IMG/VR virus record: IMGVR_UViG_2529293142_000011
Direction: 5' to 3' (one strand)
From: a virus
Taxonomy: Duplodnaviria > Heunggongvirae > Uroviricota > Caudoviricetes
DNA: 23,222 nt
Shown: piece after piece, positions 3,001-6,000 of the stretch
Numbering within the stretch: position 1 is the first letter of the stretch
How the letters are laid out: every line of letters starts with the position of its first letter
Made by a program: the position numbers

Positions 3001-6000
3001 CGTGGCGTTAAGTGGTCAGACGAAGCGCGACTGGCTCTCGAATGGAAAGCGCGATGGGGAGATCGGGCTGCATGACTATCAAATCAAATACGCCAGCACA
3101 CGACAAGGACTGCTGGCAAACGCCGCTTTGGCTTTTTGATGCACTGGATATTGAGTTTGGATTCTGGCTGGATTCGGCAGCGAGCGACAAAAACGCTCTG
3201 TGCGCTCACTGGCTAACTGAGGCTGACGACGCGCTAAATTCTGAGTGGATAAGCCACGGTGCAATCTGGAATAACCCACCGTACAGCAATATCAGGCCGT
3301 GGGTGGAAAAAGCCGCTGAGCAGTGCATACAACAGCGACAGACGGTAGTGATGCTTGTGCCAGAGGATATGTCTGTCGGATGGTTCAGCAAGGCTCTGGA
3401 GAGTGTTGACGAAGTTCGTATTATCACTGATGGACGGATTAATTTTATCGAACCATCGACAGGGCTGGAGAAGAAGGGAAACAGCAAAGGCTCCATGCTG
3501 CTGATTTGGCGACCGTTCATTAGTCCTCGACGGATGTTTACTATCGTATCCAAAGCGGCATTGATGGCGATCGGGCAGGGCGTCAGGAGGGCGACATGAG
3601 GCGACAACGACGAAGTTTCACCGACATCATCTGCGAAAACTGCAAATACCTTCCAACGAAACGCTCCAGAAATAAACGCAAGCCAATCCCAAAAGAATCT
3701 GACGTAAAAACCTTCAACTACACGGCTCACCTGTGGGATATCCGGTGGCTAAGACATCGTGCGAGGAATACAAGGTGATTGACCCAAATCGAAGTTACGA
3801 ACAAGAAAGCGTCGAGCGGGCTTTAACGTGCGCTAATTGCGGTCAGAAGCTGCATGTGCTGGAAGTTCACGTGTGTGAGCACTGCTGTGCAGAGCTGATG
3901 AGCGATTCGAATAGCTCGATGCACGAGGAAGAAGATGATGGCTAAACCAGCGCGAAGACGATGTAAAAACGATGAATGTCGGGAATGGTTTCACCCTGCA
4001 TTCGCTAATCAGTGGTGGTGCTCTCCAGAGTGTGGAACCAAGATAGCACTCGAACGACGAAGTAAAGAACGCGAAAAAGCGGAAAAAGCAGCAGAGAAGA
4101 AACGACGACGAGAGGAGCAGAAACAGAAAGATAAACTTAAGATTCGAAAACTCGCCTTAAAGCCCCGCAGTTACTGGATTAAACAAGCCCAACAAGCCGT
4201 AAACGCCTTCATCAGAGAAAGAGACCGCGACTTACCATGTATCTCGTGCGGAACGCTCACGTCTGCTCAGTGGGATGCCGGACATTACCGGACAACTGCT
4301 GCGGCACCTCAACTCCGATTTGATGAACGCAATATTCACAAGCAATGCGTGGTGTGCAACCAGCACAAAAGCGGAAATCTCGTTCCGTATCGCGTCGAAC
4401 TGATTAGCCGCATCGGGCAGGAAGCAGTAGACGAAATCGAATCAAACCATAACCGCCATCGCTGGACTGTCGAAGAGTGCAAGGCGATCAAGGCAGAGTA
4501 CCAACAGAAACTCAAAGACCTGCGAAACAGCAGAAGTGAGGCTGCATGAATATCTACGAAAGAATTGATGGCAGCAAATACCGAAATATTTGGGTAGCTG
4601 GCGACCTGCACGGATGCTACACGAACCTGATGAACAAACTGGATACGATTGGATTCGACACCAAAAAAGACCTGCTCATCTCGGTTGGCGATTTGGTTGA
4701 TCGCGGTACAGAGAACGTCGAATGTCTGGAATTAATCACATTCCCCTGGTTCAGAGCTGTGCGTGGAAACCATGAGCAAATGATGATTGATGGCTTATCA
4801 GAGCGTGGAAACGTTAATCACTGGCTGCTTAATGGCGGTGGCTGGTTCTTTAATCTCGATTACGACAAAGAGACTCTGGCTAAAGTTCTTGCCCATAAAG
4901 CAGAAGAACTTCCGTTAATCATCGAACTGGTGAGCAAAGATAAAAAATATGTCATTTGCCACGCCGATTATCCTTGTGATAAATACGAGTTTGGAAAGCC
5001 AGTTGATCATCAGCAGGTAATCTGGAACCGCGAACGAATCAGCAACTCACAAGACGGGATCGTGAAAGAAATCAAAGGCGCGGACACGTTCATCTTTGGT
5101 CATACGCCAGCAGTGAAACCACTCAAATTTGCCAACCAGATGTATATCGATACTGGCGCAGTGTTCTGCGGAAACCTCACATTGATTCAGGTACAGGGAG
5201 AAGGCGCATGAGACTCGAAAGCGTAGCTAAATTTCATTCGCCAAAAAGCCCGATGATGAGCGACTCACTACTGGCCACAGTTTATTGGTTTTCGTAACTG
5301 AGTCATTTTATTATTTTATTGCAACTTTTAATCTTTTATAGTGCGAAATAAATGGAGCTGGCATTCATTTCGCACTTTATGTTTTTGTTGGACTTATGTT
5401 ATTTTGATTGAATTCAATTCAGTTAAAAAAGAAGGTGATTGCTCCATTTATAAATGAATAGTCATCCCCTGTCTTGAATTCTGATGTTACTTTATTAAAT
5501 GCTAGTGTGAAGGCTACAGGTGCATACCCAATTGTTGCGCCAACTTGATATTCATCAACAGTTTTGTTTAGCGATACTGTTGTTTGTTTCGTCTGTATTG
5601 TTTTTCCTTCGAGAGTATAGTTGCGATTGACATCTCGTCTTTCCATACCTGCAAAAATCTTGTATTTGAATCCGCTTGTATCGGACATATGCATTAAACC
5701 ACGGGGAGCCAGCAGACCAAAGCCATTATCCGAATTGAAGGTTTTATCATTACCAATGGCAATGGTTGCGCCATATGCTACATATTGAAATAAGTTTCCA
5801 GTAACAGCAGAAACTTCAGGGTATAATCCAACATTAGCACCTAAAATATCCATACTTGGTGTCATGGATAGCATCCCTTTTACAGTATAACCGTAGCGAT
5901 TCTCTATTTGATCATCCCATGCATGATATTTTTCTGCCCCAATAATCTCATGAGCTTTATTTTGTACTTTCTGACCGCCTGCGTCGGGGCCAACAACACC

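Follow-up and report, generated by a model that had tools for sequence, protein, structure and literature searches.

In the 23,222-nucleotide (nt) stretch of viral DNA analysed here (the window; class Caudoviricetes, IMG/VR record IMGVR_UViG_2529293142_000011), an open reading frame (ORF) of 29 codons lies at positions 5208-5297, at the place of the lambda antiterminator gene Q. This ORF is, with high confidence, a non-functional remnant of a lambda-family Q gene, which was left by recombination and replaced by a Q gene of the phage 82 type (Q82). The stub as such is already known, namely as an annotated pseudogene scar at a mosaic boundary.

Extent and identity of the Q stub

5208-5297, plus strand: delta-Q, a 29-codon remnant (pseudogene) of a lambda-family Q gene; from the ORF list, alignments and the annotation of phage 434 and of the Prokaryotic Genome Annotation Pipeline (PGAP)

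In a nucleotide alignment, the stub is identical to lambda at 61 of 61 positions from 5208 to 5268 (lambda 43886-43946). From 5269 to 5285 the match is patchy, with about 13 of 18 nt in common (window CTACTGGCCACAGTTTATTGG, lambda CCACGGGCCACGGCTTCTGAC), and the last part, 5286-5297, is unrelated to lambda Q and ends in a TAA stop. The same pattern emerges when the window, lambda and phage 434 are aligned together: full identity from the ATG at 5208 to 5268, then patchy similarity and finally none. At the protein level, the first 20 residues are all identical to the N-terminus of lambda Q, and 22 of the first 24 are. Since the 71-nt match to lambda has an E value of 5e-31 (blastn-short) and lies at the syntenic position, chance is excluded as its source. 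BLAST alignments with lambda and with 116 phage records that hold an intact lambda-family Q (for instance, P22 gene 23, HK97 and epsilon34, among others) all end at or before 5278. An earlier note on this DNA, made from the sequence alone, had described a start identical to that of lambda Q and a stop after 29 codons; the alignment to lambda and the comparison with relatives carrying intact Q, both of which it had proposed, bear this description out, with perfect identity ending at 5268 and similarity gone by about 5285.

Only about 10% of the lambda Q gene is retained. Homology to the Q-lambda family (PF03589) is found at the syntenic position, after ninH or ninI. Of the complete protein of this family, which comprises a body (residues 61-207, with a zinc ribbon and DNA-binding elements) and a torus (residues 1-44), residues 1-20, or at most 1-24, remain, and a Pfam search with the 29-residue product gave no match. 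Judged by its sequence, the stub is a gene fragment and not a member protein of the family. When full-length lambda Q was compared with all six frames of the window by tblastn, residues 1-24 alone were recovered (next match, E = 0.72). Likewise, a blastn-short search of the window with lambda 43886-45186 recovered nt 1-71 alone, and no lambda PR', Q-binding element (QBE, qut) or tR', which are the cognate sites of the Q-lambda family. The tblastn search also covered the possibility, raised in the earlier note, that the diverging sequence downstream still encodes a functional Q variant; none came to light.

The body of Q-lambda, residues 61-207, binds the QBE, region 4 of sigma (sigma R4), the zinc-binding domain of RNA polymerase (RNAP) and NusA, and residues 1-44 form the torus (helix 1, residues 1-11; loop, 12-31; helix 2, 32-42), which folds only in the NusA-containing loading complex (PMC9388147). 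Of the torus, the stub has helix 1 and one third of the loop, after which come nine unrelated residues. Thus, without residues 61-207 and without qut, its product should be unable to bind DNA, to load onto RNAP or to antiterminate in the manner of Q-lambda. The view that the lambda-type antiterminator is non-functional, also held in the earlier note, is upheld by the loss of the body and of half of the torus and by a window devoid of lambda PR' and qut.

The end of the stub is also the edge of a larger replacement. The window matches lambda at 96-98% over 341-3075, 3593-4549 and 4555-5278, has no lambda match over 5279-12010, and regains lambda homology weakly at Rz (12011-12259, 75%) and strongly at 13386-13841, across cos (96-100%). 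About 6.7 kb of other DNA stands in place of the lambda Q-PR'-S-R block, which holds Q, the late promoter and the lysis genes. A recombination breakpoint at which the Q and late-promoter module was exchanged had been postulated, and the mosaic boundary is indeed there, with lambda homology stopping within 5268-5285. One refinement is needed, since the direct fusion partner of the stub is the 3′ flank of lpxR, an accessory gene that faces it, and not the Q82 module itself. An AT-rich spacer lies on the far side of lpxR, ahead of the ylcG/orf45-like gene.

The same boundary is present in previously annotated genomes. Over 341-13796, the window is 99.6% identical to the viable Escherichia phage 434 (OL657226.1), which has the same neighbours (ninI upstream, lpxR downstream and a Q82-like Q beyond) and the same feature, CPT_434_64, at 100% identity over window 5200-5310. 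There, CPT_434_64 bears the name 'antiterminator-like protein' and is explicitly identified as an N-terminal piece of lambda Q (P03047), and the gene downstream is called a "Q82-like" transcriptional activator/antiterminator. The stub is covered by the GenBank annotation alone, as the text of the 434 genome announcement is silent on it (Feiss et al. 2022, PMC9119081). The 434 record differs from the window in its single copy of the 8-bp unit ATTTTATT, in a 1-nt difference in an A-run at the lpxR stop and in being linear. In E. coli chromosomes, RefSeq/PGAP treats the same 72 nt as a pseudogene ("antitermination protein; incomplete; missing C-terminus"). For instance, prophages of enterohaemorrhagic and enteropathogenic E. 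coli (EHEC and EPEC), such as those of O157:H7 FRIK2069 (A8V30_RS31060) and O26:H11 (B9S25_RS20930), carry such pseudogenes with the identical junction and the lpxR-ylcG-Q module; many of these prophages are defective, and the FRIK2069 module lies in a defective one next to ybhC. With lambda Q (gpQ, PF03589), the stub shares descent, the ribosome-binding site (RBS) and a start that overlaps the ninI stop, but it lacks the DNA-binding body, the zinc ribbon, the paQ promoter and PR'/qut/tR'.

The replacement module and the flanks of the stub

6856-7545, plus strand: full-length Q82-family antiterminator of 229 residues; PF06323, E = 9.2e-92
6719-6841, plus strand: ylcG/orf45-like small gene; from phage 82 homology, annotated in 434 and by PGAP
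7529-7557, plus strand: PR'-like sigma-70 promoter, TTGCAA-17-TATACT, overlapping the last Q82 codons; consensus match
7591-7620, plus strand: intrinsic-terminator-like site (tR'-like), hairpin and T-run; consensus match, with a terminator at about the same position in OL657226.1
5419-6381, minus strand: lpxR (lipid A 3′-O-deacylase family), accessory gene facing the stub; PF09982, E = 4.5e-40
5243-5275, minus strand: broken remnant of the lambda-type paQ antisense-RNA terminator hairpin (Q nt 36-68); from fold comparison
5340-5390, plus strand: strong hairpin (5340-5376) followed by TTTATGTTTTTGTT, intrinsic-terminator-like, for rightward pR transcription; from folds and conservation
4546-5211, plus strand: ninI (serine/threonine phosphatase, 221 residues), the last intact lambda-type nin gene; from its ORF and a PF00149 Metallophos match, E = 3.4e-16
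5197-5200, plus strand: RBS of Q, GGAG; from sequence, annotated as the RBS of CPT_434_64 in OL657226.1

The Q82-type gene is the only intact Q in the window. Its product matches PF06323 over positions 1-216 of 220 and is identical, without gaps, to phage 82 Q at 202 of 229 residues (88%), as befits a member of the Q82 family. Homology to the rus-orf45-Q segment of phage 82 (X92588.1) begins at about 6706; in phage 82 the module directly follows rus, whereas in the window lpxR and the lambda Q stub intervene. A candidate late promoter followed by a candidate terminator lies just downstream of the gene, both recognised as consensus matches, and the PR'-like segment is conserved with the Q82-type phage PhiR47_2. 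Window 6382-7700 shares 99.5% nt identity with viable phage 434, in whose record this is the only complete Q annotated. From this identity, the Q82-type protein is presumed to be a working late-gene activator; no solved structure for it was found by sequence. The proposal that late expression would depend on this second Q-like gene gains support from its being the sole intact Q, from the promoter- and terminator-like sites and from the same layout in plaque-forming 434. In 434B, moreover, the segment with Q, the late promoter and lysis genes has been exchanged for a DLP12 segment and the stub and lpxR are unchanged; thus, late functions would track the downstream Q and not the stub. 434B also illustrates how readily this region is exchanged as one block.

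Antisense to the 3′ end of the Q82-type gene (L001 8969-8982, about window 7520-7535), the 434 record also marks a site for CII binding and a -35 element of paQ. The replacement module appears to bring its own antisense control of Q, with the lambda-type paQ promoter gone and its terminator broken. Nucleotides 36-68 of lambda-family Q genes fold, on the minus strand, into a strong hairpin with UUUUU after it, and the record of phage g341c annotates this stem-loop as the probable paQ terminator. Its predicted fold has -27.6 kcal/mol in lambda (z = -4.1) and -11.4 kcal/mol in the window (z = +0.4), where the U-run survives together with the loop and the promoter-distal arm, and no hairpin remains beside it. 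Two changes, at 5269 and 5272, disrupt the promoter-proximal arm, and perfect identity to lambda ends inside that arm. By these alignments and folds, the breakpoint is located within a palindrome. The broken paQ hairpin is a detail that is new relative to the existing annotation.

Between the stub and lpxR lies the second hairpin, 5340-5376, with a T-run on the plus strand only. Across about 60 copies its stems are invariant, and variable sites fall in the loop (5357 and 5360). The whole element, 5340-5390, thus resembles a terminator that would act on rightward transcription from pR and not on the adjoining lpxR, which lies on the minus strand. In the same interval, the 8-bp unit ATTTTATT (5305-5312) is doubled in the window, as in every copy examined from prophages, IMG/VR and metagenomes, and single in the 434 record.

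The lpxR gene itself is complete, its product matching the LpxR profile (PF09982) over positions 2-321 of 323, as expected of a member of the family. It is 73% identical at the protein level to a chromosomal LpxR of Citrobacter. This lpxR is the lipid A deacylase gene of EHEC, which is described as highly conserved there and in EPEC and has been linked to dampened TLR4 responses, and the catalytic residues of EHEC LpxR are reported to be conserved (PMC6863877). At the lpxR stop, the A-run (5419-5425) is one A shorter in the window than in 434 and most copies. This shorter run, shared in an alignment of 62 sequences by the window, E. coli 14EC001 and two other copies, gives an LpxR of 320 residues ending in ...FFFN instead of one of 319 ending in ...FFF.

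To the left of the stub, ninI is 96% identical at the nt level to lambda 43233-43889 (Nin221). As in lambda, its TGA stop overlaps the ATG of the stub (ATGA), and the GGAG is retained 7 nt upstream of that ATG. Farther left, ninG (3935-4549) is joined directly to ninI, ninH being absent and lambda 43044-43232 having no counterpart, and the first three codons of ninI (junction 4546-4555) differ from lambda; the arrangement of ninG and ninI without ninH is identical in phage 434.

Origin and possible function of the stub

The origin of the stub may be pictured as follows. An ancestral lambdoid phage with a lambda-type nin-Q region would have undergone a single recombination, either non-homologous or guided by microhomology, about 61-78 nt into Q, that joined Q to the 3′ flank of lpxR. 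In effect, lpxR would thereby have come to lie upstream of a phage-82-type ylcG-Q-PR' late-control module and of non-lambda lysis genes. After induction, N-modified RNAP from pR would read ninI and the stub, pass the hairpin and T-run at 5340-5390, cross about 1 kb of lpxR in antisense and reach ylcG and the Q82-type gene. At the promoter near 7529-7557, the Q82-type protein would then modify RNAP, which would transcribe past the terminator near 7591-7620 and on into the genes for lysis and the head. With the RBS and the ninI coupling preserved, the 29-residue peptide is probably translated, as a by-product of pR transcription, and the stub would travel as the left edge of the lpxR-Q82 module.

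Nothing that was found contradicts the reading of the stub as a mere remnant, although this account has some gaps. The exact crossover is not placeable more finely than 5268-5285, and the right-hand flank was never found without the stub, that is, in a state preceding the fusion, among the phage collection, the GTDB representatives, IMG/VR and the metagenome contigs. The same searches did not find a donor of 5279-5418: in the phage collection, the right-flank DNA occurs in two 434 records only; the GTDB representative genomes hold no exact match to a 21-mer from the hairpin; and the sole relative of LpxR among them, in Citrobacter, matches in the coding region only (72% at the nt level), with unrelated flanks. 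In addition, the ORF is intact in every readable copy, as would be expected of a functional peptide, although this point carries little weight with copies so similar.

Such a peptide would make the 29-codon ORF a working small gene that modulates RNAP or interferes with Q-lambda-type antitermination of co-resident phages. The RBS and the ATGA coupling to ninI are intact, and the ORF is uninterrupted in 53 of 53 IMG/VR copies, with no disrupting change in seven metagenome copies. The peptide also keeps parts of the torus (helix 1 and part of the loop) that contact the RNAP zinc-binding domain and the RNA-exit channel; residues 1-11 of Q-lambda contact the zinc-binding domain of beta' in the loaded complex (PMC9388147). 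Nevertheless, ORF integrity is uninformative among copies that are more than 99% identical, and the stub is as variable as the neighbouring non-coding DNA. Among 60 near-identical copies, the stub has 3.3 substitution sites per 100 nt, against 4.1 for the intergenic DNA beside it and 2.0 for the coding region of lpxR, and T24I and A7V, both non-synonymous, are among its changes. By this measure, which has low power with such near-identical copies, the stub shows no sign of selective constraint. Moreover, the last nine residues come from unrelated DNA, the product has no Pfam match, curators label the ORF a fragment or pseudogene, and the torus of Q-lambda folds only when tethered by a body bound to DNA and RNAP, with NusA (PMC9388147). 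A working small gene is thus very improbable, and it is just as hard to credit that the peptide acts on RNAP as a decoy against Q-lambda-type antitermination of competing lambdoid phages and owes its retention alongside the lpxR module to that effect.

The DNA of the stub, instead of its product, might have been kept as a leftward paQ-type terminator that halts lpxR transcripts running antisense to the nin genes. The stub does end just past nt 36-68, which in lambda-family Q genes form the strong minus-strand hairpin and U-run described above. In the window, however, the substitutions at 5269 and 5272 break this hairpin, and its predicted fold weakens from -27.6 to -11.4 kcal/mol (z = +0.4). 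With no stem left beside the U-run, a role as leftward lpxR terminator is rejected as highly unlikely. Still less credible is an insertion of lpxR into a complete lambda Q, which would have split the gene, or a lambda-type Q variant encoded farther downstream. Nothing was found in favour of either, and both are refuted by the tblastn and blastn-short searches, which yield the stub alone. Furthermore, the DNA to the right of lpxR joins phage-82-type rus/orf45/Q at about 6706, and the Q82 family is a different Pfam family from Q-lambda. A recombination remnant of lambda Q, superseded by the Q82-type gene, is by far the best account of 5208-5297.

Distribution, later exchange and significance

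At a query coverage of at least 80%, the junction of ninI or ninH, stub and lpxR was found in 620 of 5,426 complete E. coli genomes, with serotypes that include O157:H7, O26:H11, O103:H2, O111:H8, O145 and O45:H2. A query from the lpxR side only likewise retrieved 620 E. coli genomes, at more than 99% identity. In IMG/VR, 54 contigs matched a 20-mer from just beyond the right edge of the lambda homology; one of them did not extend far enough to the left and was excluded, and all 53 readable contigs carry the stub. The same is true of 7 of the 7 metagenome contigs found by a 26-mer from the intergenic hairpin region. As the junction count equals the lpxR count and the stub is present in every readable copy of the flank, the simplest reading of these sequences is one old ancestral junction that spread with the lpxR-Q82 module.

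The left context of the stub is ninI in some genomes (the window and 434) and ninH in others (O26:H11), in ninI:ninH ratios of 31:22 in IMG/VR, 5:2 in the metagenomes and about 3:1 in a spread sample of E. coli genomes. In these terms, ninH precedes the stub in about 40% of the IMG/VR and metagenome contigs and in about a quarter of the E. coli copies sampled. This dual context is also new relative to the existing annotation. Intact lambda-type Q, too, lies behind either ninI (lambda) or ninH (mEp235). In a four-way alignment that combines ninI or ninH with intact Q or stub-lpxR, only the 61-nt core is common to all, and the flanks diverge at its edges. From this pattern of four haplotypes, at least one later crossover probably took place within the stub, with the 61-nt core acting as a short homology linker for module exchange.

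Other parts of the window are mosaic as well. Non-lambda DNA at 3076-3592 replaces the lambda ninC/ninD interval (lambda 41085-42084) and contains an ORF, 3012-3599, whose 434 counterpart carries the annotation DNA adenine methyltransferase. A gene for a carbohydrate esterase of the SASA family (616 residues), at 9014-10864, separates the Q82 module from the holin. An esterase gene between the Q module and the holin is a layout typical of Shiga toxin (Stx) phages. The 434 record annotates no stx gene across the esterase segment, and no tRNA genes were found in the window. Window 13386-13796 corresponds to the right end of lambda and 13797-13841 to lambda 1-45, so that the sequence is continuous through cos; its source must thus have been a prophage or a circular form rather than the linear 434 record. 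Beyond cos on the right, the genes for head and tail (14555-23221) share about 93% identity with phage 21 and with ECOR-derived phages such as PhiR57_1, as against 66-76% with lambda, which by these identities is a further mosaic boundary. At the other end, window 1-340 has no match in lambda and lies outside the top-scoring alignment with 434.

By itself, the stub matters little, although it is a clear, datable example of lambdoid mosaicism. A single illegitimate join in Q would have given rise to an lpxR-plus-Q82 module that is now present in about 11% of complete E. coli genomes, the main EHEC serotypes included. For annotation, the stub calls for some caution, in that an "antitermination protein" of this kind should not be taken for the late regulator of these prophages. 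The immune-evasion gene lpxR of EHEC lies convergent to pR transcription, between a Q that is very probably dead and a Q82-type Q that is presumably live. Finally, the pattern of ninI or ninH with intact or truncated Q suggests that a remnant of 61 nt can still serve as a recombination linker.

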